64,000 nucleotides of DNA from IMG/VR virus record IMGVR_UViG_3300046376_000226, positions 10,556 to 74,555 of that record, one strand, 5' to 3'. Below, piece by piece: positions 33,626 through 50,852 of this stretch. The stretch comes from a virus. Numbering within the stretch: position 1 is the stretch's first letter; every line of letters starts with the position of its first letter. The notes below the pieces were generated by a model. It was not told the DNA's origin and made no database searches. It saw only the letters and a list, made by a program, of their open reading frames with translations. The translations under genes were made by a program, and so were the position numbers.

Positions 33626-33720
33626 TGGGGTGGGCGAGTGGTTATAAGCCAACGGTGATACGTGACCGGTAGCATATCACCTCTGCTAGCGGTCCGCTGG
33701 TTCGAATCCAGCCCCCATCA
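33624..33720 (+). tRNA. tRNA-like RNA with long variable arm and non-canonical anticodon arm (identity undetermined)
   Basis: GATGGGG/CCCCATC acceptor, GGC-GAGTGGTTATAA-GCC D arm, GCTGG-TTCGAAT-CCAGC T arm; no canonical 7-nt anticodon loop with U33. Confidence 0.6.
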
Positions 33721-33762
33721 TGCGCAACGTTGCGCTATCGGCGCGCCGCCGAAAAACGAGAA

Positions 33763-34344: not shown

Positions 34345-37300
34345 TTATGCTGCTTCCTGCATTTCTTCAACCGGTAAAGAGGGCAGCTTACCCTGCTTAA
34401 CCTTGTAAACTAAGGCATGCATGGCATCCAGATAATCAGCCTTGGGCCGCTGCGGTGAGCCTGCCATCTTGAATAAATCCTTAATGTCAAACCAGAGTAG
34501 CGCCTGCTTATCGGCATTGGTCAGGTGGACCCCGGCAGCTTTTAGCTTTTCACCTGCGCGTCGCATAATGTCGCGCCACCATTCCCGTTCAGTGCCGTTG
34601 CGTGGCGCGTCAGCTAGCTTAGTCGTACCCTCATCCAGCTTCTTAGCCGTCAGGTTCTCCGGAGTCTTGAACGATTCGTCGTAGCTTCCCTCCACTCCTG
34701 GGCTCTGTTGATAAAGCCTGTGCCGCTGCCGAGCCCACTTGTAAATCTCTGGCGCCAGGGCTCGCGCCGTTGGCCGGTCCAGCTTGCCCTCTGGTACTGC
34801 CATCAGCGCATCTAGTTCCTTGGATATCGTCTTGGCCTGATCCTCATCGATAGAAACCAACCCCGAATTGAGCACATCCCGAAGCTGGCTCAGATGGGAT
34901 TTAACGACCTCGCCTTTCTCGATCCGGTCTTTGCGGGTAGCCTCATCGCTGAACTTAAACATGTTCCCCGCCATCAGGTTCATGTTCCGGCTGAACCACA
35001 GGTCCATAGTGGTGGGATCGTAGTCACCGTTGAGGTTAGAAAAGAATGCCCCGATCTTGGCACCCAGCATCATAGCGCCGTTAACCGTGTGGTGCGCTAG
35101 TTCACCCCCTACGTCTAAACCAGGATACTGCTTAGCCAGCTCGCCCACGGTCATGCGCTTCATGAGCATCTTGCGCAGTTTGTCGCTGCCTAGCCCTGGA
35201 TTATTCTCATCCCCGTGCCAGAGCTTATTGATCTTGGCGAAGTTCTCTTCCATCTGCTCGGCTTTAAGCCCACCCCCGAAGATCTCGCGCGACTCTGGCA
35301 GGCGGCCCGTCTTAACGAAGTGATGGTACGCTGCCCAGGTGCTCTCGGTATTAGGGAATACATCCTGACCTTGGCTAGTGATAGCCCACGCTAGTTTGAA
35401 GGCTAGGTCATGATCCTTATCCGTTGCGATCTTGGGTGCAATCTCGCCAGCTTTCTTGAGAGCCTTCCGAATGGTGCGACTGTACCAGCCAAAAGCATGG
35501 CTGGGCTTGCCGCCAGTCGTAGTGCCAGCCAGCGAGTGCATAACATCGTGAACGACCGCATCCGATGCGTGCTCGCGATGCTCCTCATTTTCGTAATCGA
35601 GCTTCGGGTTATTGGCATCGTAGTACTCACCAATCTGCTCGTTCTTAAGCTTGCCTGGGAAGCTCCTAGCTCCAGTCAAGTGAGCATGCATGCTTTGTGG
35701 GTGAATGTCCGGATTCTGCTTAACCCAGGCTTTGCTAATTTTGTTTAGCCGGACAGAGGCAGCCTGCTCTTTTTTGTCTTCCGGAGTCTCGATTTTATCC
35801 CGATCAATGGCTGCTGTACGCATTGCTTCAGCCTTGATCGCCTTTTCTTCGTCCGCTTCGGCCTTAGTCTTCTTGACTTTGCCCGGAGCGGGCTGCTCCT
35901 CGGCCTCGGGCTCCTCGGCTTCTTCTTCCGCTCCAGGTTTTGCTCCAGGTTTAGTACCGGCCGTCTCGGGCAGCGGCTCGCCAGGGGCAGGTGGTGCGGC
36001 TTTCTGAGGCTTGGGCTTGGCAGCCTCAGTTTCGGTTGAAGTCGGTTTTTCAGGGACTAATCGGTTACGCCCCAGATCTTCGGCTGCTAAGCTTTCGTCT
36101 TCTGTCTTACCGACCTGTTTAGCCGATTTGGCGATTTGATGCGCTTCGTCACGATCAACAAATCGCCCTTTATTAGTGGTGAAACCGACTTCGTAGTTAT
36201 TAGGATCTTTTCTGCGCTCAGCGGCTACAGCTGCGTCATAATGAGTAAAACCCTCGGTGATTTTCCCGGTCGGGACATGATGGACGGCAGCCGCCCGGAT
36301 TGCCTCAGGTTGTTCCGGTGAGGGTTGCGGCTTCGCGGAAGGCGCTGCTGGCGGGGTTTTTGTCGGCGCGGCAGCAGGAGGTTCGTCATCCTGGTCTGGG
36401 GGCGGCGTTGCCGGGGGTGCCGCAGTAGTCGATACTGTCTGTCCAGCTAAATCATCGGGATCGCCCTGGGGTTTAACTAAACCGCCTTTAGCAAAGCCAG
36501 CAGGCTTAGTGGGTAACGGCACCTCGGCAGCCTTTTGCCGGTACTTTTCGACATCGATCTTTCCGTTAATCCATTGCTCACGCAGATTGTGCTTCATCTG
36601 CGTATGCTCTTCCGGTGTGATCGCTTCCGGGTCGTCCTCGTACGGTGTCACTAACCCACCACTACCTCCAACAAAGCGGTACTCATCCGGATCCTCACCC
36701 ATGGCTTCTAAGCGCCTGTGCGCTTCGGCTTCATCGATCTTATGATCAGAGAAATCGCGCTCGATCTTATTGATCTGGGCGTTGTCCTGATAGGTGTGAT
36801 GCAACGAGGTAGCAATCGGTACATCCGGACGCCCTTGTTCAGAGGTGTTTTGGATTGCCCTGGTCAGGTTCTGGAATTCTTTTCCGGGCCGGATGGTCTC
36901 CGGGAAATAACGTTCATCCTGGTGGTGCGCCACGATTAAGCCGGTCTTAAAACTGCGGACACTGGGTTCCAGTACCCGATTGCGCCAGCCTGGGTCGTGC
37001 TGTTCGATATGATGGCGCATCCGGTTGGTTTCGCCCTCCGGAGTAATCAAAGTGCCGTTGGCTTTAGCTAGCTCCCGCAGTTTCTGCGCGTCCTCGTGGC
37101 CCGCAAAAGCCATCGTGTTATTAATTACCGTGTTAATGAAGTCGGCTTCCCGTCGCTTCAATTTGTACGGAACATGGCTCGGGTCAGGTATATTAGGCAG
37201 ATCCTCGGTACCCAGCGCATGCCCGCGCCCGGTCGCGGTATGACCGGCATTGAGATTAGAATAGTAGCCTTCCAGGTCGTTATAGAACTTGTTTCCCAGG

Positions 37301-39972
37301 CTCTTGTACGGCGTTTTCAAGCCCAGGGCGGCCAGCTTCTCGTTTAAATGCCCGAAATTATTAGCCAGGATATTAGTCGAGATGCCCTGGATATAGGATT
37401 GATGCGGTTCACCGGCTTTTCTGGGCAGGCTGACGCCTACGGAGGTAGGAATAAAACTGTGTCCCACTAGCTGTCCTACCGTAGTTCCCATCAGACGCGC
37501 CTCCGGGGTGTGTTCTTCGTACTGGACAGTGCGACTTTCGCGGGTGGGATAACGCTGAGCTTCTTTAGGTGCCGACAGATAACTGATATGCATCGGGCGC
37601 TTCTCAGCGATCGCTTGCTCGGCTTGGGCTAACATCTGGCGCTGCGGACCATGCTTGCCTTCCGGTAAGCCTCCTAGGAGCTGGTCATGGATCGGGTCGC
37701 CTTCAACGAAGTGCTCGCCTTTTATCGCGCCGTCTTTTTGTTTCTTAACACGCGGATCATCCTCGGAAACTAAGCGGGCGTGTTCTTTAACGGCTTCGGG
37801 TAATTTCGTTCCGGGGCTAAGCGCTTTAAATGCTGGCGGGTTAGCTTGGCCGTGGGTGCTACCTGGTGGCGCTCCTCCGGTGTAGATTCCACCCTTGGCT
37901 GGCGCAGTTGGCTGTGCGGTCGTAGCCGGTGGTACCGGTGCTTTAGCCGGTGGTACCGGCGCTTTAGCTGCCGCAATCGGCTTCTTTGGCGCTGGTGCTG
38001 AAGGAGCAGGGAGGAGCGTCTTCGGTTTAGCTGGCGCAACCGGCTGGACTTTCCCGAGTTCCGGTTTTTGCAGGAGCGAAAGCTCAACTGTCTTGGCGCT
38101 AGGCTGAGCAGGAAGAGAAGAAGGTGCCGCTGGCGGGGGCAGTAAGGACTGCGGCCTGGCGGCCGGGGCAGCCGGAGCTGGTAGCTGGGCTGACTGGGAA
38201 GCACCCGGAAGGATATTCTGGGTATCGGTAATGGCTCGCGGCTGACTAGATCCCCGCGTGATTAGTTTAGTTGTTAACGGGGTTTGTTCTTCCTCTTCCT
38301 CTTCCTCGGTTTGCGCGGCTTGAGCTTGCGGTGTTCTGCCGCGAAAAGGCCAGGGAATCCCGCCAAACCAACCACCTTGGCTTGGAGCGGCTTCCGGTGC
38401 CGCGCTAATATGGGCTGTTCCTCCGCTAGCGCCCAGTGGGACCTCTGTCTGTGCAGGCGCAGGCGCATTGGTTTCACTAGGAACCATGGGCACTAACGTG
38501 TCTCCACCTTTGCCTTTACCTTTACCTTCACCACCGCCTTTGCCGGTGAGTTCAATGTCAGGGATTGGGTAGGGCTTACCATCACCGCCGACTATCTGGT
38601 AGCTGACAGCATGGTTATCGCTAAATCCCATGTCTTTGGCCGCACCGTAGGTTAGGTCTAATACTTTACCTGGGTGCCTCCCTAGAGAGCCCTGGATATC
38701 GACAATCGGGAACTTGTGGATCTTGCCGTTGGGATCCGGTAGTTCGACATGAGCAGATTGAATCTGCCGGATGATCGCTTTGGCTTCAGGCGTATCCAAT
38801 GCGTCATAACCGCCCTTCGAATTTAGCTGAGCAAAATGGCCGAAGGTCTTTTCCAGGACATCTACTGGCACGGCAACCGCCTTTAAATTTGGGTTCCGCG
38901 TGTTGACTCCACCAAAGAAGCCCCGCCCGTTATCATCAGCATCGATACTACCGTCGTAATTGAGTCCAAAACTGGTGGCGGTACCGTAGATCCTCTTCCC
39001 GTCAATTGTGGTTGGCGCCTGATCTCCGGTGCCGGGTGATGGCAGTTGAATCTTGGGGGACTTTGCGCCTGTTTCACTACCGCTTGTTTGCGGCTCGCCA
39101 CCGCCTTTCCGTCGATTGAATTCGGCAATAACTCTCGGGTCATCAAGCCGGTCGGTATCTAAGCTGCGCGCAATTTCGGATTTAAGCAGCGTGTCATTCA
39201 GGTTATCCTGCTCGCTGGGCTTGGCTGGCTCTGCCTTGGGCTTGGGTGCTGCCCCTGAAAGCGTCTTGGGCTCCTGACCTGAAACAATTGCTTGAGCGGC
39301 CCCTGGACTGTGTCCCTGATTAATCAGACCTCTCAGCTGCTCCTCGGTATCGGGCTGATCCTCGGCTATTTTCGGATAGACGGTCGGTTGCTGCTGGGGA
39401 GACTGTTGCTGCGGAGACTGCTGCTGGGGCGGCTGGGGCGGCGGCAACTCCCGACTCGCCATAGAGACCGGGGGCGCTGGCTGCTGTTGCTGGGGCTGCT
39501 GGTTGACCTTAGCTTCTGGTGCGTTAGGGGCAAAAACCTTTGGTTGATCTCCTTTCGCCTTCTCGACTGGAACTTCTGGCGCGTCTGGAGCAAAAGTTTT
39601 GGTTTCTGACTTCTCGACTGGGACCGCTGATGCGTCTGGAGCAAAAACTTTTCCACTGGGAGGAGGTTCTTGTGTTTTTGGCGGAAGCTCCTCGCGAGAG
39701 TGTAACTGGAAGGGATTCCCAGAGCGCGAAGGGTCTGGCGGCAACGTCCATGGAATTTTTGATATGGCCGCCACGGGATCGGGATCACCCAATGCCAGCT
39801 GTTTGACGCTACCTCCCTCTTCGTATCCACGAGCGCCCTGGTTCAATTGGTCCAGTTTCTTTACACCTATGCGCCTGACAGCATCCCGTTTTATTACGTA
39901 CTCACCGGGCGTCAGCATCGCCGGAACGGTGTCAGTAGGACCAGGAGCGGGAGGTGGGGGGCGTGTCGGCAT
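34345..39972 (-). CDS. Very large multidomain internal virion/ejection protein with putative RlpA/DPBB-like lytic transglycosylase domain
   Basis: 1875 aa; TDTVPAMLTPGEYVIKRDAV; GTATSFG..DDNG..AVAVP..IVDI..KVLDLTYGAAKDMG; C-terminal GWY..AITSQG..GAKIGAFFSNL..TMDLWF domain; Pro-rich linkers. Confidence 0.8.
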   Translation of the reverse strand: MPTRPPPPAPGPTDTVPAMLTPGEYVIKRDAVRRIGVKKLDQLNQGARGYEEGGSVKQLALGDPDPVAAISKIPWTLPPDPSRSGNPFQLHSREELPPKTQEPPPSGKVFAPDASAVPVEKSETKTFAPDAPEVPVEKAKGDQPKVFAPNAPEAKVNQQPQQQQPAPPVSMASRELPPPQPPQQQSPQQQSPQQQPTVYPKIAEDQPDTEEQLRGLINQGHSPGAAQAIVSGQEPKTLSGAAPKPKAEPAKPSEQDNLNDTLLKSEIARSLDTDRLDDPRVIAEFNRRKGGGEPQTSGSETGAKSPKIQLPSPGTGDQAPTTIDGKRIYGTATSFGLNYDGSIDADDNGRGFFGGVNTRNPNLKAVAVPVDVLEKTFGHFAQLNSKGGYDALDTPEAKAIIRQIQSAHVELPDPNGKIHKFPIVDIQGSLGRHPGKVLDLTYGAAKDMGFSDNHAVSYQIVGGDGKPYPIPDIELTGKGGGEGKGKGKGGDTLVPMVPSETNAPAPAQTEVPLGASGGTAHISAAPEAAPSQGGWFGGIPWPFRGRTPQAQAAQTEEEEEEEQTPLTTKLITRGSSQPRAITDTQNILPGASQSAQLPAPAAPAARPQSLLPPPAAPSSLPAQPSAKTVELSLLQKPELGKVQPVAPAKPKTLLPAPSAPAPKKPIAAAKAPVPPAKAPVPPATTAQPTAPAKGGIYTGGAPPGSTHGQANPPAFKALSPGTKLPEAVKEHARLVSEDDPRVKKQKDGAIKGEHFVEGDPIHDQLLGGLPEGKHGPQRQMLAQAEQAIAEKRPMHISYLSAPKEAQRYPTRESRTVQYEEHTPEARLMGTTVGQLVGHSFIPTSVGVSLPRKAGEPHQSYIQGISTNILANNFGHLNEKLAALGLKTPYKSLGNKFYNDLEGYYSNLNAGHTATGRGHALGTEDLPNIPDPSHVPYKLKRREADFINTVINNTMAFAGHEDAQKLRELAKANGTLITPEGETNRMRHHIEQHDPGWRNRVLEPSVRSFKTGLIVAHHQDERYFPETIRPGKEFQNLTRAIQNTSEQGRPDVPIATSLHHTYQDNAQINKIERDFSDHKIDEAEAHRRLEAMGEDPDEYRFVGGSGGLVTPYEDDPEAITPEEHTQMKHNLREQWINGKIDVEKYRQKAAEVPLPTKPAGFAKGGLVKPQGDPDDLAGQTVSTTAAPPATPPPDQDDEPPAAAPTKTPPAAPSAKPQPSPEQPEAIRAAAVHHVPTGKITEGFTHYDAAVAAERRKDPNNYEVGFTTNKGRFVDRDEAHQIAKSAKQVGKTEDESLAAEDLGRNRLVPEKPTSTETEAAKPKPQKAAPPAPGEPLPETAGTKPGAKPGAEEEAEEPEAEEQPAPGKVKKTKAEADEEKAIKAEAMRTAAIDRDKIETPEDKKEQAASVRLNKISKAWVKQNPDIHPQSMHAHLTGARSFPGKLKNEQIGEYYDANNPKLDYENEEHREHASDAVVHDVMHSLAGTTTGGKPSHAFGWYSRTIRKALKKAGEIAPKIATDKDHDLAFKLAWAITSQGQDVFPNTESTWAAYHHFVKTGRLPESREIFGGGLKAEQMEENFAKINKLWHGDENNPGLGSDKLRKMLMKRMTVGELAKQYPGLDVGGELAHHTVNGAMMLGAKIGAFFSNLNGDYDPTTMDLWFSRNMNLMAGNMFKFSDEATRKDRIEKGEVVKSHLSQLRDVLNSGLVSIDEDQAKTISKELDALMAVPEGKLDRPTARALAPEIYKWARQRHRLYQQSPGVEGSYDESFKTPENLTAKKLDEGTTKLADAPRNGTEREWWRDIMRRAGEKLKAAGVHLTNADKQALLWFDIKDLFKMAGSPQRPKADYLDAMHALVYKVKQGKLPSLPVEEMQEAA

Positions 39973-40021
39973 CGTTGATTTCCTACTTGAGTTTCAATCC
40001 TCGGTACTGTATAGTGGACAC

Positions 40022-40249
40022 ATGCTGCGGCGGCTTTTACTCTTATTCCTGTTCCCTTATTTGCTTGCGGGGTTGCTTGCGGGAATCTATTTCCTGTGCT
40101 GGGCTGTGGCGTGGGCTTTCTTTGTTCTGGCGATTCCTATCTGTGAAATAACGCATCTGAATTACAATTTTGTGATGCTAGCAGAAGGAGTAGCACTGGT
40201 AATATGGTTGCTCTATTTATGTACTAAAGAAGCACTCAAGAAGTCTTAG
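40022..40249 (+). CDS. Small membrane protein on the opposite strand
   Basis: MLRRLLLLFLFPYLLAGLLAGIYFLCW... two hydrophobic helices; fills the gap between two ejection genes. Confidence 0.55.
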   Translation: MLRRLLLLFLFPYLLAGLLAGIYFLCWAVAWAFFVLAIPICEITHLNYNFVMLAEGVALVIWLLYLCTKEALKKS

Positions 40250-42855
40250 GGTTTAGTTTTCAACTTCCCGTCTCCATCCCAGAACAACGTGCCGCTCTTG
40301 ATGGCCTTGTAATCGGCATCGGTCTTGGGACGAGGTGCAGCATCTGAAATTTCCTTACTTACAGGCGTTGGTGAAAGTGAAACCTTTGCTGACGTAGATC
40401 CATCGCTCGAAGCATCCCAGCCGTGAGTAGGTGACCAAGGGGCATCCCACTTCCTTTGCGGCGGTATCCCGATGTTATTTACTAGATTGCGATTCTTGTC
40501 CCTCATCCTATTGTTTTCATCCTCTATGTAGCCCTTTGTTGAATCCGTTAAGTTGCTCAGATTTTTCAGATCCGTTTCTGGGATGCGAGAACCGCCCTTG
40601 GTTAACTCGTCATTGTAGCGTTTGTAATCAGCTATAGCGTTGTTTTTAACCTCTCTGATGCCAGCCAGAGCCGTATCATAATCATTACCCCCTTGGGTAA
40701 TTTTATTTAGAGGATTGATAGTGCTCACATTCGTTCCTCTCGGTACCGAGAGGTCTATATTAGTAAACGGAATAGTACCACCCAACTCTTCCTGCTTCGG
40801 CGTCGCTGCGATGCCCTCGTATGTGCCTCCTGGTGTTTTCCCCAAGTGAGTGTTTAGATTTACCATGTCCTGCGCCAGCGAATCCGCGAACTTATTTACC
40901 GGCCCTTTTTTGGCCAGGAAGTCCCAGAAATCGTGTCCCCAGGACTGCGCCCAGCTTGGCATCCCAGGCTGATATGCTGCCTGCGCCCAGGCAGCTTCCT
41001 TGCTCCGGACCATTTCATCTTGGGAAATAGTACTCAGAGGTATCTTATTCTCCTTTAGCCATAAGATCTTATCTTCAATTTGCTGCGCGTCCTTGATAGA
41101 ATTTGCTGCGTTCTGAAGTCCAATTGCTTGAGGGCCTGTCGGGTCAGGAGCATTGGGATGGAGCTTGTAAAACCTGGCGTGCCGGAGCCACAAGTCCTGC
41201 CACTCTGGGCTAGAGTTCTTGATTGTGTCATAATTCATGGTTATACCGTCTGGGATCGGTGGGCCACCGGGCCCAGCGTATTCCTCAAGCAGTTGTTGCT
41301 TACGCAAGTCCTCTGGACTCCCTTGTCCCGGTACAAATCCACTAGAGCCTTTGTAGAAGCGCCGTTCTAAAAATGGGTGTGCTGCATCCTCAGGAAGCGA
41401 CGTATAAACCTTGCCCTTCTCATCTGTTTGCCAATTGAAAATAGGGTGAGCGGAATTCGCATCAGCATTCAATGTTTCCGCTGAGGCGTTCTCCTTTTGA
41501 GCATCAGCTGCTGCTTTCGCGCCCTCTACCGCCTGCTGATTACTACCGCCAGCCATTAATGCAGGGTTTACCGCGCCTGTCTGACTAACAGTGGGTCCCT
41601 GCGGCATTTGATATGGAGCAGGATTATAGGCCCCAGGAGCCGCTGGCGGCCCTGTTTGGTCTTGGGCGATTGTCGGGTAACGCTGAGCCGGGTTCGGTTG
41701 CTGGGGGACCGGAGGAGCAGGGGCACTCGCCGGAAAGGGGACCTGATTGCCAAAAGGCGACCAAACCGGACCCTGCTGGCTGCTAGGTGGTTGTTGTCCG
41801 TTGCCCTGTGGTTGTTGTGCGTTGCTCTGCTGCTCTAATACCTCGCTGGCATTGTGGTTAGTCATTAATGCCCGACCCCACGGTGTTGCTGCTAACTGCG
41901 AGGCGGATATCGTGGTCGAGCCGCCGCCCTTCAGGTTGATAACCCAGGCGGGTTCGCCCTTAATGCCGCCACCGGACAAATAGGTAGCGTCCTGGGCAGC
42001 GGTACTGACATTAGTCCTGAAAGCATCCAGTACCGCTTTTGGCGCAATAACCGGATGAACGTTCTGATCTTGCCAATGAGCCAGCGCACTTGCTTCAGGC
42101 GGGGGCGGGGCTGCTTGAGCTTGTTGCGGCGCTTGGTTATCCGGTGCCGGGGGCGCTAAGGGCGTTGGTCGCCGTGCCGGACTCCAGATGGAGCCGCCTT
42201 GTTGCGGCGGGTTGACTTGGGGCGGTGGTTCCTGCGCCTGCGTCGGTTCATAGTTACCCGTGGAAGGGTTCAAGAACATGCGTGTGCCCAGACCCGCTGC
42301 CTGGCGCTCTAGCGCCATTTGATTTAGAGGAGCAGCGTCCGATTTAGACTCAGAGCTTACAGTTCCTCCGGCATCATAACCTCGCACTAGACCTCCCTGC
42401 GCCATCCCTGCGCTAGGATCCTTCGGGGGAGGTTGCGGGGGTGTTCCCGATGTCCACTGATTGCTCCCAGGTTTTGCCTCGTAGTATGGCTGACCGTTTT
42501 CGTCTACCCCCGTATTCTTACCAGTACGAGTTATAGTCGGGTTCGGCTTCGTTACTGTTTTATTGTCACTGCCGTCGCCAGTGGTGTCTATATTTTGCGC
42601 GGCCTGTTGCGTGACTGGCTGCGTTATAGGAGCAACCATGGTCGCACCTTGAGGAGTCTCTGCGACGGTACCATAGAGCCAGTTTTTATTCGCGGCCGCA
42701 TGCTTCATTGCCGCCTCACCGAGTTGCGCCCTCTGTACCCCCTCTTTCATCTGCTCCCGCACCAGCGGGTTTATAGGCGAACTCATGAGTTGGTTAGCCG
42801 CTTCCATTGCGGTCTTACCAACCCCCGCCCACAGCGCACCTGCTTCTGTTGGCAC
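40246..42855 (-). CDS. Large internal virion/ejection protein
   Basis: 869 aa, Gln/Pro-rich, MAQGGLVRGYDAGGTV motif; C-terminal IKSGTLFWDGDGKLKTKP typical of podophage ejection proteins. Confidence 0.75.
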   Translation of the reverse strand: MPTEAGALWAGVGKTAMEAANQLMSSPINPLVREQMKEGVQRAQLGEAAMKHAAANKNWLYGTVAETPQGATMVAPITQPVTQQAAQNIDTTGDGSDNKTVTKPNPTITRTGKNTGVDENGQPYYEAKPGSNQWTSGTPPQPPPKDPSAGMAQGGLVRGYDAGGTVSSESKSDAAPLNQMALERQAAGLGTRMFLNPSTGNYEPTQAQEPPPQVNPPQQGGSIWSPARRPTPLAPPAPDNQAPQQAQAAPPPPEASALAHWQDQNVHPVIAPKAVLDAFRTNVSTAAQDATYLSGGGIKGEPAWVINLKGGGSTTISASQLAATPWGRALMTNHNASEVLEQQSNAQQPQGNGQQPPSSQQGPVWSPFGNQVPFPASAPAPPVPQQPNPAQRYPTIAQDQTGPPAAPGAYNPAPYQMPQGPTVSQTGAVNPALMAGGSNQQAVEGAKAAADAQKENASAETLNADANSAHPIFNWQTDEKGKVYTSLPEDAAHPFLERRFYKGSSGFVPGQGSPEDLRKQQLLEEYAGPGGPPIPDGITMNYDTIKNSSPEWQDLWLRHARFYKLHPNAPDPTGPQAIGLQNAANSIKDAQQIEDKILWLKENKIPLSTISQDEMVRSKEAAWAQAAYQPGMPSWAQSWGHDFWDFLAKKGPVNKFADSLAQDMVNLNTHLGKTPGGTYEGIAATPKQEELGGTIPFTNIDLSVPRGTNVSTINPLNKITQGGNDYDTALAGIREVKNNAIADYKRYNDELTKGGSRIPETDLKNLSNLTDSTKGYIEDENNRMRDKNRNLVNNIGIPPQRKWDAPWSPTHGWDASSDGSTSAKVSLSPTPVSKEISDAAPRPKTDADYKAIKSGTLFWDGDGKLKTKP

Positions 42856-42981: not shown

Positions 42982-44328
42982 CTAGACCAAGCCTTCCATG
43001 CGCAATCTGTAATAGAGGTCGTTTGGATTTTCCTGTTGCCCTTCTCCACGCTGTGATTGGGACTGGTTTAACGTCACTTCTTTCGCGGGAGGTGGAGCCG
43101 GGATCGCTGATGTCTGCATCTGCCACGGTTTAACTGACTGGGCGTATTGCTGGGCGGCAGCCGTTAAGCCTGAGGCTAGCCCGCCAATTACGCCAGCCGC
43201 TTGGACTCTAGGATTTTGCCCTCCGCTCCACGAGGTATTAGCGGCATTCGCTGCGTCAATTGATGGTGAAGCAGTGGCCACTCCTCCGGTCGTTTGCGGT
43301 GCCTGCGGAGTGGTTGGGGTTGGAGGCCCAACTTGTAAAGACTGGGTTCGGTCGGCGTAACTCTGGCCAGCCGGTCCTGGGTTTGTGGCATTAATGCCTG
43401 CCAGAGAGAGAGCCCTTCTGCGAGCCTCTTCAGGCTGGTCATCGCCCACATAACCTCCGGAGTCCATTCCAACTGGGGGTACTAACCCACCAGAGCGCAT
43501 CTTTATTGGCGGCCCTCCTGCAATCGCGCTTTGTAGTTGGCTGTGAAAGTCTGCGATATCCGCAGGCGTAGCGGAACTGGGGTCACCGCCAAAATGAGCA
43601 AATATGGCCTTACCAGCATCGGCTAATGCGTTGGTGTGAGCCGACAAAAAATCTGGTGCGGCGGGAGGCTGGCCTGGCTGGGTAATGGGTACAGCAGGTG
43701 GCGCTCCTGGCGCGGCGGGTGCGTGTACCCTGGCAAAAGCTTGTCCAGGCTGATAAGGCACATAATCCACCCCGCCAGAAGCGAGGGGTTGAGGAGTCCC
43801 GCCCCCGCTCGGGGGTAGCGGTGTGGCAGCCTGGAAGACTCCCGGCATCTGGGGTCCCTCGGAACCGGGACCGGCCTTCAGGAAACCGGGCTGGAATGGG
43901 CCGAAGGTGGGTGAACCCACGTTTTGAACCCCGCCAATGCTGGCCTGGCCGCTCGGGATTGGGTTGTAGACCGGGTAACCGCCATAGCGACCCAGTCCTA
44001 CCGCGCTAAGACCAGCTGCACCCAGATTGGTTAGTCCAGCATCGGGACCGCCCACACCGTAGGGCGAATTTGTGCTGCCGCCTTGGCTATTACCACCGCT
44101 GCCCTGCGCATTGAGCCCCGCTAGATTCGTTCCGCCCCGCGCATTAATCAGCCCCGCTAGATTACTCGGATCATTTTGGTTGTTGGCGCCCTGGGCAATG
44201 GTGGGAGCAATACTACTGATGAAGGTGCCGACCTGGTCCAAGGGAACATTCTGGGCTTGTAACGCCTGCGCTACACCCGGCCCGAAGGTGCTCGCAACGC
44301 TGTTCCAATCGCTAAAACTAGCTGCCAT
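42982..44328 (-). CDS. Gly/Pro/Ala-rich internal virion protein
   Basis: 448 aa, GGAG RBS, overlaps the tfuA end; MRSGGLV and MDSGGYV motifs. Confidence 0.75.
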   Translation of the reverse strand: MAASFSDWNSVASTFGPGVAQALQAQNVPLDQVGTFISSIAPTIAQGANNQNDPSNLAGLINARGGTNLAGLNAQGSGGNSQGGSTNSPYGVGGPDAGLTNLGAAGLSAVGLGRYGGYPVYNPIPSGQASIGGVQNVGSPTFGPFQPGFLKAGPGSEGPQMPGVFQAATPLPPSGGGTPQPLASGGVDYVPYQPGQAFARVHAPAAPGAPPAVPITQPGQPPAAPDFLSAHTNALADAGKAIFAHFGGDPSSATPADIADFHSQLQSAIAGGPPIKMRSGGLVPPVGMDSGGYVGDDQPEEARRRALSLAGINATNPGPAGQSYADRTQSLQVGPPTPTTPQAPQTTGGVATASPSIDAANAANTSWSGGQNPRVQAAGVIGGLASGLTAAAQQYAQSVKPWQMQTSAIPAPPPAKEVTLNQSQSQRGEGQQENPNDLYYRLRMEGLV

Positions 44329-45625
44329 GGGTTGACTCCTTTGCCGCGTTAAGTCTTTCTAAGGCTACCCCTAGCTCGATGCAGTTGCTGAAACCGGTAT
44401 CCAGGAGGTATTCTTCCGGATTGCAGTGCAGTTCTAGCCCCTCACGTTCAAAATGCTCAGTTAGTATTTCAAAAGCGCCTCGCTCGAGGTTAACGCTGAG
44501 CCAATCGTCAACGCCGCTCTCTTTGATCTTCTTTTCAGTTGTAACCGCTTGGGTCGCCCAGTAATCAAAGGCTTGATGGGTGCGCAAATAATCAATGATT
44601 TGCTGGCTATTGCGCCGGTACATCTTAGCCACGGTATTACTATGTTGTAATTTGCGGATGCGAGCATTCTGGATAATCAGCCGGTTGTACTCGCCCTGGG
44701 TCCAGCCATTAGCTGAAAGGTAAGAGGAAAACTCGCCCGGGGTTTCGATACCGCTGCGCTGTTGGAACCGGATATTCTCGCGCTCGACTTCCTCAATCGA
44801 GACGGTCACTAGCAGCAGATCGCAAAGCATCAGCGCCAGTTCCTGGTTAGAGCTGTCCCAGCAGATCCGCTCATACTCGGGGTGGTGAAGCAGCACGTAA
44901 GCGTCGATGTGCTGTTGGGGAATCGGTTCGTCGTTGACCTCAATCCTGCGATCCCGTTCATAGAGCGCCTGGAAAAAACGGGAGAGGTGGTCTGGAGTGG
45001 GCTTAAGCTTGGGCTCTGGTTTCAGTTCGCGGAAATTTTCCAGGAGCGCAGTAGCGTCAATGGCCTTCTGAGGTATGAGCGGGAAATCGGGACCACCCCA
45101 AAGCTGTTCACAGACCTCCTTAGTCCGCTCTGTGTAATTGATCTTCTGCGCTGCGGCAAGGAACGCTTCGGCCTTGTTATCTTTGACTGCGTTGACCCCG
45201 GCCCTGATATCGACCAATGGAACAGTGAAACATTTATAGTCTCCACTGGGTAATTCAGCATACGAAACAGCCACCTCCCCGTCATCTTCGGTTACACCGT
45301 CTCGATACCATTCGTAGATCTGGCCCACACCGATCATTCCCAGCCAATCCAACTCCGATGCGCGTAAAGCGCCCATCGATGCCGCGCCATAGATGGCCTT
45401 GACGCCCGGATACTGGAGCGCATAGACGATCTCCTTATGCCAGGGGGATAAATTTTCCCTGAACGAACCATCCACCAGAAGGATATGCGTAGGATTCAGG
45501 TTAACTACGTCGGTGACGATGTCCCCTTGTCGGGCAGGTCGACGGTAGATTGCCTCAGGAAGGATCTCGCGTGCCCGTGTTATAGGCAGCGAAGGGCCCA
45601 GATAGACTAGGACTTTCTCACTCAT
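44318..45625 (-). CDS. tfuA: TfuA-like protein
   Basis: VYLGPSL, PARQGDI, VDGSF..SPWHKEI..AL, GAASMGALRASEL..GMIGVG.IYEWY, DDGEVAV, VPLVDIR. Confidence 0.92.
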   Translation of the reverse strand: MSEKVLVYLGPSLPITRAREILPEAIYRRPARQGDIVTDVVNLNPTHILLVDGSFRENLSPWHKEIVYALQYPGVKAIYGAASMGALRASELDWLGMIGVGQIYEWYRDGVTEDDGEVAVSYAELPSGDYKCFTVPLVDIRAGVNAVKDNKAEAFLAAAQKINYTERTKEVCEQLWGGPDFPLIPQKAIDATALLENFRELKPEPKLKPTPDHLSRFFQALYERDRRIEVNDEPIPQQHIDAYVLLHHPEYERICWDSSNQELALMLCDLLLVTVSIEEVERENIRFQQRSGIETPGEFSSYLSANGWTQGEYNRLIIQNARIRKLQHSNTVAKMYRRNSQQIIDYLRTHQAFDYWATQAVTTEKKIKESGVDDWLSVNLERGAFEILTEHFEREGLELHCNPEEYLLDTGFSNCIELGVALERLNAAKESTHGS

Positions 45626-46835
45626 TTAAAACCGCCTTTTCGGACAGTGCTTTGATTTTGCGTTCCGCGTAAGAAAGGCATCGCAGGCCAGGTCGCCAAT
45701 GGTCGAACCGGAACGGCTCGCACTGGGGCGAGAACACGCGCACCACGTGAACCGCGCCGTCTAGGTACGAACCCATCTCTTTAACGAAGACCTCCGAGAT
45801 GCCGTAGCCCCTGATTAGCTTAAGCAGGTAACGCAATTCGTTTTTAACATCCGGGAAAGAAACGGTGCGGTAATCAGACAGGGGTGATCCAACGGGCAGC
45901 TCCTGAAACAGCTCATGCAACTTGGCTTGATTCATGCGCTTCATTAACAAGAACTGCCGCCGGAACAAATCATCGCGCGCGCCTGATATGTAACAGCACC
46001 TCGCCTGGGCTGCCTCGGTGATAGCGCGGATAGCCGCTACCTCGGCGTTCAGGTGGGCGCCGTAGCCGCCGAATGTACCGGCACAGCGGCCGCTTAAGTC
46101 CAGGATAATGGCCGAAAATACCGGGATATTGTAATCGGTAGTGATATCGAAAAGGTGCAGGCGCAGATCGGCGGACTCGATCTTGCGAATACAGCTCTCT
46201 ATCTTCTCTGATACGGTCCCTAGCGGGGTTCGGGTAAGGAGCATTCCGCTGTCCAGGAGGAACTGGTTCAGCGTCCAGGCATCCCGCTCGATTACTTCGT
46301 ACAGACCGGCCAGGATTGCGTCTTGGACTGAGCCCCCGCTGGCTAACCCATTAGAACCCATCTGAACATACATCAGGGCTTGACCTTTAATTCTGGTGAC
46401 TAACCAGAGCAGGTCGCTCGGAACTAACTTAACTACGCCGTTCTGAATGTTAGTTGCTTCTTCCCAGGCGATCGGGGTCAGCTCACTTAAGACACTAGAC
46501 CGGGTGGGGAAACAGTCCTCCAGTGCTAAGCGCTCTGCTTGGGGTAGTTCAGCGGCTCGAGCGATCCGGAAGGCGCCATAGGGATGTTCCCCTGCATGGA
46601 ACTCGATTGCTTCCATGATCGCGCCGCACCGGGAATAAGCTGGGGCGAGTCCCTTGCCAGAGTGAATGGAGACGGTCTCCGAAAGCGCCCGCACGCAGCT
46701 ATGGACCGGCAGACCCACCGCATCTAACCCGGTCAGATCCGCTACCCTGGAAATGCCGAAGTCCTTAAGCAAGTCTGTGCGCGTTACCGCATTGACTGCC
46801 TGGGCGGTTGCTTCACGTAGTTCTTTGCGGGTCAT
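45618..46835 (-). CDS. ycaO: YcaO-family ATP-dependent backbone-modifying enzyme (TfuA-associated type)
   Basis: GISRVADLTGLD..GLPV, SGKG..AIMEAIE, SNGLASG..AGLYEVIERDA, GYGAHL..AIRAITEAAQAR..ISGARDD. Confidence 0.93.
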   Translation of the reverse strand: MTRKELREATAQAVNAVTRTDLLKDFGISRVADLTGLDAVGLPVHSCVRALSETVSIHSGKGLAPAYSRCGAIMEAIEFHAGEHPYGAFRIARAAELPQAERLALEDCFPTRSSVLSELTPIAWEEATNIQNGVVKLVPSDLLWLVTRIKGQALMYVQMGSNGLASGGSVQDAILAGLYEVIERDAWTLNQFLLDSGMLLTRTPLGTVSEKIESCIRKIESADLRLHLFDITTDYNIPVFSAIILDLSGRCAGTFGGYGAHLNAEVAAIRAITEAAQARCCYISGARDDLFRRQFLLMKRMNQAKLHELFQELPVGSPLSDYRTVSFPDVKNELRYLLKLIRGYGISEVFVKEMGSYLDGAVHVVRVFSPQCEPFRFDHWRPGLRCLSYAERKIKALSEKAVLNE

Positions 46836-48319
46836 ATGGTTGAGGCTCTGAAGAATTCAGCAATAAGGACTCGGTCATAGATGGCTCTGTCCATGGCCAG
46901 CCTGATAAGGCCGCACAAGCGTTCCGCTCGTGAGGAGCGCAATATATTGTCCGCTACCCAGCGTCCGAATTTCAGGTAGAGCGCCCTTAGTAGCCACGGG
47001 CAGCGCTTCGAGTAGAGCCAGCTTCGGAACATCACCCAGCGAGGGTTATCTGCTCCGTAGCACCTCCTAGCCACCCAGCAGCTTATGGCCGCCGCCGCTG
47101 CTGCTGCCGATGCGACGGCTCCTGCTGCTCCCACTCCCGCTGAGACCATGCCCGCTTGCTGCTGGGCTGCTAACTGCTGTTGTTGCGCATTTATTTGGGC
47201 CTGATTAAATGCAATCCCATTCATGGTGGCGTAATTGGCTTGTTGAAAACTGTTATAGGCTCCGGCCTGCCCCAGTTCTGTTTGGGCCAGGTTGGTGCCC
47301 CCTAATCCGAATGGGCGCTTTTGAAATAGTTGACCGGCAGTCTGCATGTTCAGCATGAGATTTTGGGCCTGCTGATTTTGCAGGTTGCCATAGATATTAG
47401 CCATCTGGGCGGTATCCATGGCCATCTGTTCGGTAGCTCCTTGGGCTTGCCCGTAGAGCTGGCCGCCTAAGCTTCCTACGTTTGCGCCTCCCTGGTAGAG
47501 CTGACCGGCTCCCTGGAGTTGCTGGCCGCCTAGACCGATGGTCTGGCCACCGGCCCCGATCGTTTGAGCGCCCAGACCCTGGAGCTGGCCTGCCTGGCCG
47601 AGCATAGAAGCGTACTGGTTAATGTCGCCCATCGCTTCACCCCGGCGCTGCATCCCGTACTGGATGGTGTTAAGGCCCAGCTGACGGGCAGCAGCAGCTT
47701 GCCCAGCCATGCCCTGGCCTAAGGATGCTGCTCCCAGTGCTCCGGCGCTCGAGCCCAGGCCCGCGAGCATCATCTGTTGCTGGACCTGGGGGTCCATGGG
47801 TTGCTGCAAGAGTTGTTGCCCTAATTGATAGGGGATCTGGGCGCTTCCGGCTAATTGCCCTCCTAGACCTGCGATTTGGCCGCCAAGCCCTGCCTGTTGC
47901 TGGCCCATACCGATCAGAGGCTGAGCGAGTCCGGCCTGGGTTGATCCCAGGTTATACATAGGCTGAACGGCTTGATTCACTGTCTGGGCCGCGTTACGGA
48001 TCCCCTGGATATCGGCGGTATTGGTGACTCCTTGGCGACCAGCGATCGTGTTAGCCAGGCCCGACATGATAGCCTGCTGGCCAGCGGTGCCCGCACCAAC
48101 CGCCCCAGTCTGCTGACCGAGATTGGACTGCCATTGGTTGTAGGCGTTCTGTAGTGCCGGATACCGGTTAGCAAAGTCTGCGTCACTTAACGCGTAAGAG
48201 GATATGTCACCCCCGATAGCCAGCTGGTTGAGCCCCATTCCCGATTGATAATCAAAGCCCGGGGGCGCGCCTTGCGCTTTAAACTGAGTTGAACCGCCGC
48301 CGCCACCACCACCGCCCAT
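46832..48319 (-). CDS. Gly/Gln/Ala-rich internal virion (pilot/ejection) protein
   Basis: MGGGGGGGG start, GQQ heptad-like repeats, C-terminal CWVARRCYGADNPRW..FRSWL domain. Confidence 0.75.
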   Translation of the reverse strand: MGGGGGGGGSTQFKAQGAPPGFDYQSGMGLNQLAIGGDISSYALSDADFANRYPALQNAYNQWQSNLGQQTGAVGAGTAGQQAIMSGLANTIAGRQGVTNTADIQGIRNAAQTVNQAVQPMYNLGSTQAGLAQPLIGMGQQQAGLGGQIAGLGGQLAGSAQIPYQLGQQLLQQPMDPQVQQQMMLAGLGSSAGALGAASLGQGMAGQAAAARQLGLNTIQYGMQRRGEAMGDINQYASMLGQAGQLQGLGAQTIGAGGQTIGLGGQQLQGAGQLYQGGANVGSLGGQLYGQAQGATEQMAMDTAQMANIYGNLQNQQAQNLMLNMQTAGQLFQKRPFGLGGTNLAQTELGQAGAYNSFQQANYATMNGIAFNQAQINAQQQQLAAQQQAGMVSAGVGAAGAVASAAAAAAAISCWVARRCYGADNPRWVMFRSWLYSKRCPWLLRALYLKFGRWVADNILRSSRAERLCGLIRLAMDRAIYDRVLIAEFFRASTI

Positions 48320-48723
48320 TAGTTTACCTCCTCGTCGTAGATGTAGGCGGTTTCAGGTGCTCGTTTGAGCCGGATCCGCCTCAGGTTTTTCGGGCCGAGC
48401 GCCTCGGCTTTTTCGCATAACAGGAACAAGGGGTTCCCCGTCATGCGCTTAAACTCGGTAATCAGACTCCGGGTTAATTTCAGGAAGACGCGCGGGCTCA
48501 TCTTATCGGGATGAAGCGCCGGGTAGACTACCAGTTGCGGGATCGTATGAGCGTAGCCGCGCAGCTGGCCGTGATAAAACACGAGGTAGATCGGGAACAT
48601 GCGCAACAGCTCTTTCCCGGTCAGCTCGCGCGCCATCTGGTCCAGGTTCCAGTGCTGCAAATCTTTCTCGTTTTCACAGCGAATCAGTGAAATACCGGCT
48701 TTATCAGAGTCTGGGGAGTTCAT
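48319..48723 (-). CDS. Small tail-operon protein
   Basis: Coupled on both sides; sits where podophages often have an acetyltransferase-like gene. Confidence 0.6.
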   Translation of the reverse strand: MNSPDSDKAGISLIRCENEKDLQHWNLDQMARELTGKELLRMFPIYLVFYHGQLRGYAHTIPQLVVYPALHPDKMSPRVFLKLTRSLITEFKRMTGNPLFLLCEKAEALGPKNLRRIRLKRAPETAYIYDEEVN

Positions 48724-50852
48724 GTTAGTCTTCCGTCTGCTGTGATGATGGCCCATAACAAATCCCCTCTGGAGATGCCTGCCCCGAAGACAAGCACCAC
48801 AGCGGTCCCGGCCGCGTTCACAAATCCTGAAAGAGTCACCTGGGTTTTTGAGTCAACGGTCGCGACGGTCGCCCCGGGCAGGATCCCTAGCCCGCTAACC
48901 GGCATCCCGGGCTTGATCTGGGTAGTGTCCGGAATGGCCGTAATCTTCTTGGTGCCGAAAGTGAGGCCGACCGCCAGAGCTGTCCCGGTAGCCGCGACTG
49001 AAATCGTGATGGTCTTATCCATCGAGAAAGTGAGCGCTACCCCGATCGCTAGGCCGTGCGTAAAGCCGCTTAGAATCACAGAGTTTGCCCCTGTGTTAAC
49101 CTGGACCACGGTGGTTCCCGCCCCGATCCCGTTGCCGACCGCCTCCATGCCGACCGTGATATTGGCAATATCCGCGCTCGGGATGTTACTGATCTTGGTA
49201 CTCCCATCGATGGTGCCAGTGGTGTTAACGGTCACGCCGCCAGTCGGAGCGCTCGCGACCGTGGCTCCGACCGGGATCCCGGCCCCGGTGACCGGTGCTC
49301 CTACTACGATGCCGGAGCTAACGCCCTCAAGAGTGATCGTGACCGAGCCATTATTAATATCGCCCGTAGTGGTAATCAGGGAGGTGGTGCCACTGGTAGT
49401 CAGGACGGGCGGAAAATTAGTGAAGGTCAGCCCGACATTCGCCTGGCTGATGGTGGCAGCCGCCGAAATAGTCAGCGAAGTCGACGAGAGAATTTTAACG
49501 ACCGTGGCCCCGGTCGGAATACCGTTCCCGCTTACCCCAGCACCGACGTCGATCCCGGGGGTAGCCACCAGGGTAATAGTCGTAGTGCTATTTAAGGTGC
49601 CGCTGGTATTAATGACCGCGCCGCCGGAGTCGGTGATACCCCGTCTGCTCGCCGCTAAGTTCGGGATCAGGATATCAAAGTTGGTGAACATATCAGTCAC
49701 CAACCCGGCCGCCTGGGTCTGGTAACTGTACGGAGTGACCACCGGATGCAGGAGCGCCATCCGGCGAGGGAAAATAAAGGTGGCAGCCCAATTATTATCC
49801 TGGGAAGCGAAAAACTGGACCGGTGCGCCGAAAGTTGACGATTGATAAGCGAAGGTCGTGAAATAGTAGCGAGTCAGGATCTCCAGATCGTCTGCGAACG
49901 CTGGGACCGAGAGATAGGTTGGGCTAAGGCTGGCTTCTAGCTTGATCCCGGTGATCGCTAAAGCGTTCCCGGCGGTTGCCAGCAAGTTCAGGTTCTGGCT
50001 AGTGCCAGCGTTTAGGCCCCCTAGCCATTTATTAAGGTTGCCGCTGGTGATCCGGAAGTTGGCGCCGACCCCAAAAGGGAATCCTACGTAGAGCCCGGTT
50101 ACTCCTTCGCCAAAGTGCCAGGTACCGCCGCTAGGGAAGGCGGGAATAGCAGGGACCGTGATCCAGGTCCACTGATTGGCCGTTGTCAGGGTAAAAGCGG
50201 CGGTGTAACTCTCGTCGCGTCCGCTGCTAGCCAGGTAGACCGAATAAGTGCCCGGGGTAGTGCCATAGGCCCAAAAAGATAAGGACATCTTCTGCCCCCG
50301 GAGAGCCACGATGTCTGAGCCTTCGAAGAGATGCTCGTGCGAGTAAAGATCGGTGGCTAGCAGAGTAGTTACCACCCCGGGTCCGACCGTATAATTGATG
50401 GCGGTAGGGATGTTATCATTGTTGGGGCCTGCCGCCGGACCGTTAATCGAGGAGATAGCCAAAATGTTAACGAGATTGGCTTGAGCAAAGCTCATGTCGT
50501 AAGCGGGTCCCCCGCCGGCCGGCACAGCAATGGCGGCACCGGTCTGTTGCACCTGGTAAACGCAATTCTTGACGTAATTCTTGATGGTCTTAACCGGGAA
50601 CATCTGCGGCTCGTATTCGCCGGTTGCGGTATTCCAGAAATACCAGACGCCATCCATGGCGATCGGGCCCTGGTCACTGGTGGGCAGGTCTGAACCCGGT
50701 GGCAAAATTAAGCCCAGCAAAAAGTTGCCCTCGATATAGCCGGTCATGAGCTGGACGGCTTGCTGGAAAGTTTCGTCCATGTCGCCCTTGAACCCTTCCG
50801 GGAAAGGCGCAATCGCGATCGTAAGCGGGATCTGAATAGCGGGGGTAGGCAT
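48720..50852 (-). CDS. Tail fibre/spike-like protein
   Basis: Thr/Gly-rich; four repeats of VG..V.G.GIP.GATV; ITGIKLE..PT carbohydrate-binding-like segment. Confidence 0.75.
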   Translation of the reverse strand: MPTPAIQIPLTIAIAPFPEGFKGDMDETFQQAVQLMTGYIEGNFLLGLILPPGSDLPTSDQGPIAMDGVWYFWNTATGEYEPQMFPVKTIKNYVKNCVYQVQQTGAAIAVPAGGGPAYDMSFAQANLVNILAISSINGPAAGPNNDNIPTAINYTVGPGVVTTLLATDLYSHEHLFEGSDIVALRGQKMSLSFWAYGTTPGTYSVYLASSGRDESYTAAFTLTTANQWTWITVPAIPAFPSGGTWHFGEGVTGLYVGFPFGVGANFRITSGNLNKWLGGLNAGTSQNLNLLATAGNALAITGIKLEASLSPTYLSVPAFADDLEILTRYYFTTFAYQSSTFGAPVQFFASQDNNWAATFIFPRRMALLHPVVTPYSYQTQAAGLVTDMFTNFDILIPNLAASRRGITDSGGAVINTSGTLNSTTTITLVATPGIDVGAGVSGNGIPTGATVVKILSSTSLTISAAATISQANVGLTFTNFPPVLTTSGTTSLITTTGDINNGSVTITLEGVSSGIVVGAPVTGAGIPVGATVASAPTGGVTVNTTGTIDGSTKISNIPSADIANITVGMEAVGNGIGAGTTVVQVNTGANSVILSGFTHGLAIGVALTFSMDKTITISVAATGTALAVGLTFGTKKITAIPDTTQIKPGMPVSGLGILPGATVATVDSKTQVTLSGFVNAAGTAVVLVFGAGISRGDLLWAIITADGRLT

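Follow-up and report, generated by a model that had tools for sequence, protein, structure and literature searches.

The YcaO enzymes known to thioamidate full-length proteins have two substrates, McrA and uL16, and thioamides in proteins are otherwise not known (PMC13063428). Outside high-sulfide habitats, thioamide-forming YcaOs tend to rely on a ThiS-type thiocarboxylate together with a TfuA hydrolase (PMC13063428). Among the predicted TfuA biosynthetic gene clusters (BGCs), some carry 'Nif-11 like' precursors, none of them characterized, in a survey that makes no mention of phages (PMC8120280). Here, we describe a ycaO–tfuA gene pair in a 64,000-nucleotide stretch of viral DNA, in the following referred to as the window, which covers bases 10556-74555 of the 74,555-bp IMG/VR virus record IMGVR_UViG_3300046376_000226 (CheckV completeness 100%); soil metagenomes are the only sequencing runs that contain this DNA. 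The pair is a conserved component of a clade of soil phages, it is embedded between putative virion genes, and its relatives in bacteria belong to clusters for peptides that are made by ribosomes and modified after translation (RiPPs). To our knowledge, no virus has so far been found to make backbone thioamides, and full-text literature searches returned no paper on a viral YcaO–TfuA, in line with the original prediction, made from the letters alone, which had called it a candidate for an undescribed system.

The features that matter most for the following are:

46832..48319 (-): g495, 495 residues, Gly/Gln/Ala-rich, putative internal virion protein and candidate substrate
45618..46835 (-): ycaO, 405 residues, TfuA-associated (thioamide-forming) type, predicted to activate the peptide backbone with ATP
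44318..45625 (-): tfuA, 435 residues, matching PF07812 over residues 52-168 (E 4.2e-31)
45020..45625 (-): TfuA catalytic domain, residues 1-202 (PF07812, NF033432, fold match to 6xp8, GxSxGALRA motif)
44321..45019 (-): TfuA C-terminal extension, residues 203-435 (alignments A3 and A4)
42982..44328 (-): g448, Gly/Pro/Ala-rich, directly downstream of tfuA, alternative substrate candidate

Both enzymes are encoded by full-length open reading frames (ORFs) with intact motifs, just as had been claimed from the letters. YcaO matches the Pfam family PF02624 (E 2.7e-56) over profile positions 1-324 of 325, and its residues E75/E78, N162-G163 and E180/E183/R184/D185 (ExxE, SNG and ExxERD) are invariant in 15 phage sequences and in archaeal and bacterial relatives. 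The same applies to G80/S83/G85-A89 of TfuA (GxSxGALRA). Across the 15 phage sequences, 49 residues of YcaO and 45 of TfuA are invariant in total, and we consider the pair almost certainly functional as judged from its sequence. The overlaps with each other and with both flanking genes, which had also been noted before, are real: the g495 stop and the ycaO start share the sequence ATGA, ycaO and tfuA overlap by 8 nucleotides (ATGagTGA), and tfuA and g448 by 11 (ATGgcagcTAG). This arrangement indicates that the four consecutive genes g495, ycaO, tfuA and g448 are translationally coupled.

The type of chemistry is suggested by the closest characterized matches. The best PDB match of YcaO is Methanocaldococcus jannaschii MJ1094 (6pe3, E 3.1e-30), and its top NCBIfam model is TIGR03266, the McrA-thioglycine equivalog, with 178.6 bits against a cut-off of 365, which is not reached. 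For TfuA, the best PDB sequence match is the Methanosarcina acetivorans protein (6xp8, E 5.8e-24), and the top NCBIfam model is NF033432, again below its cut-off (137.5 versus 235.2 bits). In an AlphaFold2 model, TfuA residues 3-202 form a complete TfuA fold, which superimposes on 6xp8 with a VIA Z of 24.1 and a root-mean-square deviation of 2.2 A over 193 aligned residues at 38% identity. These best matches support the assignment of the pair to the thioamidation type, in agreement with the original prediction. At E<=0.1, the 74.5-kb genome has no match to ThiS (PF02597) or ThiF (PF00899); since the phage encodes neither, the pair would need a sulfur carrier of the host.

Unlike the archaeal proteins, phage TfuA continues beyond its catalytic domain. 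Residues 203-435 constitute a separate, conserved and mostly helical domain, which yields a confident fold when modelled alone (predicted local distance difference test 83.5, predicted template modelling score 0.72). This extension has no match in Pfam or NCBIfam at E<=10 and no significant fold match in the PDB with VIA-align or Foldseek. The highest ranks in these structure searches are held by SurA, PEB4, PrsA and trigger-factor chaperone modules, with VIA Z values of 5-6.6, Foldseek E>1 and probabilities of 0.4-0.7; as these ranks lie below reliable thresholds, a role of the modelled extension as a peptide-holding domain is a weak lead.

To follow the pair beyond this genome, IMG/VR was scanned with YcaO, g495, g608, TfuA and g495-family alignments, and a scan of JGI metagenomes was added, yielding ~24 distinct viral and metagenome contigs in total; a narrower g495-family alignment (A6) returned five loci in the metagenome scan, all consistent with the other contigs. 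Every contig that extends far enough shows the order g626, g608, ..., g145, g495-family gene, ycaO, tfuA. Thus, the synteny with neighbouring genes that had been proposed as a check holds for g145, the g495 family, YcaO and TfuA in all assessable contigs, and none of these has one partner of the pair without the other. The conserved small gene in this order is

48319..48756 (-): g145, always upstream of the g495-family gene (synteny by tblastn, all lineages)

and it has no family match in Pfam, NCBIfam or PHROGs. In the close group, YcaO is 61-83% identical to that of the window, while the deep lineages show 33-38% identity for YcaO, 37-43% for TfuA and 31-43% for g608. Rather than being absent from relatives and nearly identical to a BGC copy of a host, the pair is thus carried by all related phages, and the divergence of YcaO (35-83% identity) parallels that of the structural genes (31-76% for g608). 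Having changed in step with the structural genes, the pair belongs to the old core of the lineage rather than being a recent moron, and these sequence comparisons are best explained by vertical inheritance as a core component of a clade of uncultured soil phages of ~75 kb. Likewise, all contigs returned by scans with the g495-family profile bear YcaO, and a collection of 5.8 billion proteins contains more than 120 clusters each for YcaO and long TfuA (at least 60% identity), many of which sit on contigs of 72-80 kb. No relative was found among 50,697 GenBank phage records, either by blastn or by tblastn. Two insertions were seen on the way: in one contig (L009, 11580-12119), an ORF resembling HNH homing endonucleases lies exactly between the g495 gene and ycaO, and in a divergent phage (L046, 9553-9858), a Cys-rich ORF of 101 residues, not seen in other phages, lies between ycaO and tfuA.

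Cellular relatives were collected from 185,579 species genomes with a TfuA alignment, which gave 588 loci, 80 of which were kept. In nearly all of the 80, ycaO precedes tfuA, and the closest homologues are only ~30-35% identical to the phage enzymes; the best cellular YcaO match in a single-protein scan, at 33% identity, is a Legionella locus. A host search in the same genomes found neither a prophage relative of g608 nor a close YcaO. A TfuA extension like that of the phages, with tblastn matches at 21-31% identity, occurs in ~15 bacterial loci (Nostoc, Symploca, Ca. Magnetominusculus, Parachlamydiales, Streptomyces, Azospirillum, Gemmatimonadales and metagenome-assembled genomes of Actinomycetes) and in none of the others among the 80.

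In a YcaO tree (FastTree), the phage enzymes form a distinct clade with a support of 100. This clade groups, with a support of 94, with 14 extension-bearing loci (support 98) and two Actinomycetes, while the archaeal McrA-type enzymes of methanogens are placed elsewhere in a separate clade. Because the tree was built from YcaO, the shared TfuA extension is independent evidence for this grouping. Sequence comparison thus indicates that the phage pair shares ancestry with bacterial RiPP-type clusters and is nearer to them than to McrA or thioviridamide systems. The original prediction, which had named the latter two as the known types, is therefore supported as regards the thioamidation type and needs to be amended with respect to its nearest relatives, which are bacterial clusters with Nif11 precursors.

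In these bacterial sister loci, precursors with a Nif11 leader (PF07862, E 1e-10 to 1e-13) are encoded just upstream of ycaO. Besides a double-glycine site, they have short cores that are hydrophobic and rich in Ala, Gly, Thr and Val, for instance GVTTWVSAATAVAALGVC, RLVEWAGVVATAIGAIAAAF, SSASWTAVGVGAAALGA and TTTTTTVFAAASAAVAAAI. Some of the loci include ThiS and ThiF, and several a GT1-TPR gene. One Nostoc precursor matches Bacteriocin_IIc below the threshold (E 1.4e-4, 22.2 bits versus a cut-off of 27.1). A locus of Azospirillum cavernae (L061, 2762-5768) stands out by Nif11-like leaders, after which come GQPASSAAAF/W repeats (~30 in tandem) and GQIAGGTIAA repeats. Its neighbours are YcaO, a long TfuA, ThiS and a ThiF-like gene, and it may represent a multi-core thioamide precursor.

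The phage, by contrast, encodes no Nif11-type precursor. As the original prediction had stated, it shows neither a separate precursor nor a protease or transporter; g495 has no Pfam Nif11 domain, and a hidden Markov model (HMM) built from six Nif11 leaders finds nothing at E<=10 in the six-frame ORFs of the phage and eight relatives. Instead, wherever a related contig can be assessed, the gene directly upstream of ycaO is of one and the same family (alignments A1 and A5; 210-576 residues). In the window, this is g495, with two features near its C-terminus:

47081..47155 (-): small-residue stretch, g495 residues 389-413, AGMVSAGVGAAGAVASAAAAAAAIS, proposed equivalent of a core peptide
46835..47080 (-): CWVAR...YG..P.W..FR.WL domain, g495 residues 414-495, portable C-terminal module

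While the N-terminal 380 residues of g495 are strongly conserved, the stretch that follows is the most extreme uncharged small-residue window of 22 residues among the 112 ORFs of the window, and all members of the family have an uncharged stretch of Ala, Gly, Ser, Thr and Val near their C-terminus. In three divergent lineages (L049/L053, L051 and L052), which have no CWVAR...FRxWL domain, the upstream protein even ends with it (...GSAALGAATAAAV, ...GGIAAAAVVALA and ...LSTAAATAN, each followed by the stop codon), and ycaO comes immediately after. In its composition, the stretch resembles the cores encoded in the bacterial sister loci. This core-like composition, together with adjacency and translational coupling, makes the g495 stretch the best substrate candidate.

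Other sites were considered and set aside. The run of seven or eight glycines at the N-terminus of g495, found in the clade of the window, was rejected as a universal thioglycine site, as it is absent in L030 and all short forms. The motif (F/Y/M)xxGGxV is unlikely as a conserved target, with two occurrences each in g448, g869 and g1875 and only one among 15 proteins encoded downstream of the pair in divergent phages with YcaO. Likewise, formation of an azoline at Cys414 is unlikely, because lineages that have no Cys or no CWVAR domain keep both enzymes.

The pair, which the original prediction had placed in an operon of virion ejection proteins, lies deep inside a long co-directional late operon that also contains a tail-collar fibre gene. 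The operon continues downstream of g448 with further low-complexity proteins:

34345..42855 (-): g869 and the giant g1875 (1875 residues), putative internal or ejection proteins, given as context only

For these, only weak PHROG matches were obtained, one of them to an N-terminal motif of tape-measure-like character. For g495 and g448, sequence searches of Pfam, PHROGs, NCBIfam and the PDB were blank, and Pfam, PHROGs and PDB sequence searches gave nothing useful for g608, g626, the putative capsid protein, g1875 and other neighbours. Of the flanking genes that had been called internal virion genes, the ORFs at 46832-48319 and 42982-44328 do exist and are Gly/Gln/Ala-rich, whereas the virion label could not be confirmed because the searches were blank for the neighbours. 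Such labels ('internal virion', 'ejection') follow from the position in the operon, the giant downstream protein and a similar order in other phages, and by them g495 is probably an internal virion protein. Its nearest ESM-atlas clusters are viral hypothetical proteins, with P22_gp7 as a weak lead (13% of one cluster, score 0.85); this assignment was not confirmed (no Pfam match at E<=10), and neither was a resemblance of the C-terminal 100 residues to CFI-box-CTERM (no NCBIfam or Pfam match at E<=10). As for g448, it has two MxxGGxV motifs, and weak homologs of it, or Gly-rich proteins, are found downstream of tfuA in every lineage.

Several observations concern other parts of the window. The tail-collar fibre protein (30982-32379 (-)), with a Collar domain (E 2.3e-23) and a collagen repeat, contains the second most extreme uncharged small-residue stretch of the window at residue 412, TGALGSGGVAAAVAGAGLVTTS. 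Upstream of the putative capsid gene, the late operon includes, at 57712-61859 (-), genes for glycosyltransferase-like proteins (PHROG E 1.3e-7) together with one for a methyltransferase of the FkbM type (Pfam E 5.9e-16), which may represent a second virion-modification system; an HNH endonuclease (58470-58907 (-), PHROG E 1.7e-27) is encoded inside this head/glycosyltransferase operon. An ORF with a PAPS-reductase domain (14830-15789 (-), Pfam E 1.4e-11) is located in the early region, 30 kb from the pair. No other gene that might be connected with sulfur or adenylation was found, and this one may act in DNA modification instead. ARAGORN reports a normal tRNA-Trp(cca) at 585-657 (-) and, just downstream of the giant protein gene, a 99-nucleotide 'tRNA-???' with the four-base anticodon tacg at 33623-33721 (+), which may be spurious. 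Lastly, a 271-residue ORF (6590-7405) weakly matches the IS110-family Transposase_20 (E 0.0021).

Taken together, we propose that this large clade of soil phages thioamidates an Ala-rich, membrane-active segment in one of the virion (DNA-ejection) proteins that it encodes, using a YcaO–TfuA pair of bacterial RiPP-type origin and a ThiS-type carrier of the host. To this complete account we assign a probability of roughly 0.35. By analogy with characterized systems, YcaO would O-phosphorylate one of the substrate's backbone amides at the expense of ATP; TfuA would supply a sulfide equivalent, probably by hydrolysing the thiocarboxylate of a ThiS-type protein of the host; and upon departure of the phosphate, a thioamide would remain (+15.977 Da). 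The full-length protein g495, with its membrane-active-looking stretch, would stand in for a leader–core peptide. As to its history, a RiPP-type pair with similar natural cores may have been captured beside a gene that already offered a suitable segment. The individual parts of this proposal differ in strength. That the pair modifies some protein of the phage is likely on present sequence evidence, and the original prediction of 'structural or ejected proteins' as targets can be narrowed to residues 389-413 of g495 as the likeliest candidate; this stretch is favoured because the family always has it and ends with it in three divergent lineages, and we hold it to be the most probable single target, at odds slightly short of even. 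The chemistry, the sulfur donor, the substrate, the location in the virion and the biological benefit, for which protease resistance had been suggested in the original prediction, are all inferred.

A number of points weigh against this proposal. An exhaustive profile search with alignment A5 returned 1527 representative clusters, mostly over the C-terminal module only. One typical member has relatives on viral contigs, and in five of these genomes, of 32-45 kb and with a completeness of at least 91%, the stretch occurs together with the CWVAR module while YcaO is lacking. In one YcaO-less phage (L160), the module-bearing protein is followed by one of 362 residues and a giant one of at least 1969 residues, mirroring the order in the window minus ycaO–tfuA. 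Since stretch and module are widespread, also in YcaO-less phages, they did not evolve as a core peptide, and the occurrence of the module beside ycaO needs no thioamidation to be explained; it could be a membrane anchor. The stretch is thus an ancestral trait that a widespread class of phage proteins has in common, presumably a membrane-interacting segment. Further, the co-occurrence of g495 and the pair is phylogenetically non-independent, because it comes from a single phage lineage, and the g448 family keeps, as seen by eye, a Gly/Ala/Ser-rich stretch and adjoins the pair as closely as g495 does. The virion role of g495 is putative, by position, and substrate recognition must differ from that in the bacterial relatives, because the phage has no Nif11-like leader. 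On the side of the enzymes, the grouping of phage and bacterial YcaOs comes from a single method, with its support of 94 being a FastTree Shimodaira–Hasegawa-like value only, and a tree of the TfuA catalytic domain recovers the phage and bacterial groups each as monophyletic without resolving their mutual relation. The sequencing runs listed for this DNA include no RNA run.

Two observations on the stretch and the module should be mentioned in this context. Compared with other carriers of the module, the stretch of the full-profile family has more Ala, Ser and Thr and less Gly (p ~0.001-0.006), a difference of little weight given the crude grouping and the non-independence of the sequences. 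The C-terminal module itself, consisting of the small-residue stretch and CWVAREVYG..P.W..FR.WL..AP.W...Y..G..A, appears to be an undescribed portable domain, which no Pfam or NCBIfam model matches. Its carriers (among them P0295, P0301, P0351, P0352, P0360, P0386 and P0282) are proteins of 84-1255 residues: it is found on mini-proteins of 84-104 residues, concludes Q/A/G-rich, phage-like proteins with lengths of 300-1255 residues, and occurs twice in one protein of 702 residues.

If the pair does act on a phage protein, this might be a protein other than g495. The protein g448 remains the main alternative target, and g869 or g1875 could be modified as well, for instance at (F/Y/M)xxGGxV, to give a thioglycine as in McrA, which is the best-studied product of a TfuA-type YcaO. 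The coupling of g448 to tfuA is as tight as that of g495 to ycaO, weak homologs or Gly-rich proteins follow tfuA in every lineage, and g448, g869 and g1875 each possess two GGxV motifs. Yet this motif is nearly absent downstream in divergent YcaO-bearing phages (one occurrence in 15 proteins), neither L030 nor any short form has the poly-Gly N-terminus of g495, and conservation in the g448 family, with 34-37% identity over partial matches, falls far behind that of g495. The bacterial sister precursors also argue for the upstream gene, as they sit upstream of ycaO and have cores rich in Ala, Val and Thr with no emphasis on Gly-Gly. We therefore regard a target downstream of the pair as rather unlikely. 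A different product could even arise from g495 itself: the thioamidated C-terminus of its family might act, or be released, as a membrane-active peptide, in analogy to the bacteriocin-like peptides with double-glycine leaders of the bacterial relatives, and serve as a pore during DNA ejection, in lysis, in superinfection exclusion or as a bacteriocin-like effector. The sub-threshold Bacteriocin_IIc match of one Nostoc precursor, the resemblance of both the bacterial cores and the phage stretch to glycine-zipper or transmembrane segments, and the termination of the protein at the stretch in three divergent lineages would fit such a RiPP-like product. However, the phage was found to contain no protease, double-glycine cleavage site or exporter, and 380 conserved N-terminal residues fit a structural protein better than a disposable leader, so that we think there is little chance of it.

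Alternatively, the enzymes, produced late or packaged, could be directed at a protein or peptide of the host, be it for takeover, for the evasion of defence or for altering a host RiPP or ribosomal protein, with their place in the operon reflecting the timing of expression only. Host-directed morons tend to move or be lost. In this clade, on the other hand, ycaO strictly keeps its place behind one particular structural gene, whose stop codon overlaps its start codon, over very deep divergence, and no candidate target in a host can be named. It is nevertheless true that no precursor-like small ORF or leader was found in the phage, that its structural operon houses other auxiliary genes (the glycosyltransferase/FkbM methyltransferase cluster and the HNH endonuclease), and that a YcaO can recognize a folded cellular protein, uL16 (PMC13063428). 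On balance, a host target seems improbable to us. Finally, YcaO enzymes are chemically versatile, the McrA-type NCBIfam equivalog cut-offs are not reached, and Cys414, the Cys of CWVAR, directly follows the stretch; the pair might thus perform another kind of YcaO chemistry, such as azoline or amidine formation or ATP-dependent peptide cleavage, or be a decaying passenger devoid of function. We give this very little credence: a co-conserved, intact TfuA is a hallmark of thioamide-forming YcaOs (PMC8120280, PMC13063428), both enzymes are kept where the upstream protein is devoid of Cys and of the whole CWVAR domain, and no E1-like or dehydrogenase partner is found among the ORFs scanned. Decay, moreover, is unlikely because so many residues of both enzymes are invariant across phages that are only ~35% identical.

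Should the modification of g495 prove true, it would be the first case of viral backbone thioamidation and would add a third class of thioamidated proteins to McrA and uL16. A phage-encoded YcaO–TfuA wired into a virion-gene operon would thereby extend thioamide chemistry to viruses, and enzymes of RiPP maturation would have been redirected to a structural protein of full length. If the target is a segment for ejection or membrane insertion, phages would have a new means of tuning the stability or membrane activity of virion proteins. Such enzymes, able to thioamidate long proteins, would also be of interest for protein engineering. The candidate substrate is concrete and can be tested cheaply, and the link between the phage system and the uncharacterized bacterial Nif11-type thioamide RiPP clusters offers two entry points to the function of the TfuA extension.

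Among the known systems, the YcaO of the Escherichia coli type provides a parallel with regard to the substrate, as it thioamidates the ribosomal protein uL16, the second known backbone thioamide in a folded cellular protein, and for this YcaO a pairwise complex screen of the AlphaFold3 type has been carried out (PMC13063428). It works independently of TfuA and belongs to a different YcaO subfamily; its model NF040716 scores the phage YcaO with 32.9 bits versus a cut-off of 700. The thioamitide (thioviridamide-type) and thiovarsolin clusters of Actinobacteria have TfuA-dependent YcaO thioamidation and cores rich in small residues in common with our proposal (PMC8120280). By contrast, they feature dedicated short precursors, many tailoring enzymes and secreted natural products, and they were not recovered as the nearest relatives in the YcaO tree.

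The archaeal McrA YcaO–TfuA system (6pe3/6peu, 6xp8) has the same catalytic motifs as the phage pair and provides its best sequence and structure matches. It also acts on a full-length protein instead of a leader–core peptide, as we propose for the phage. On the other hand, its TfuA has just ~215-235 residues and no C-terminal domain, whereas that of the phage has 435; the phage enzymes miss the equivalog cut-offs, fall into a separate clade and have no McrA-like target in the phage. No McrA-like conserved glycine target was found in the partner protein, with the run of seven or eight glycines and GGxV both being unconserved across the clade.

The bacterial Nif11 clusters with YcaO and long TfuA, whose products are uncharacterized, differ from the phage system in several respects. 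At an identity of ~27-35% between the enzymes, the phage does without the Nif11 leader, the double-glycine site, ThiS/ThiF, the adjoining GT1-TPR gene and an exporter, and its candidate substrate is a conserved protein of 210-576 residues from a virion-gene operon, as opposed to a peptide of ~90 residues. What both have in common is the position of YcaO in the same group of the tree, the C-terminal TfuA domain of ~230 residues, and the gene order, with ycaO followed by tfuA and preceded by the (candidate) substrate gene, whose product includes a hydrophobic stretch rich in Ala, Gly, Thr and Val. Measured against all of these systems, the phage locus represents known chemistry in a novel biological setting and with a novel type of substrate.

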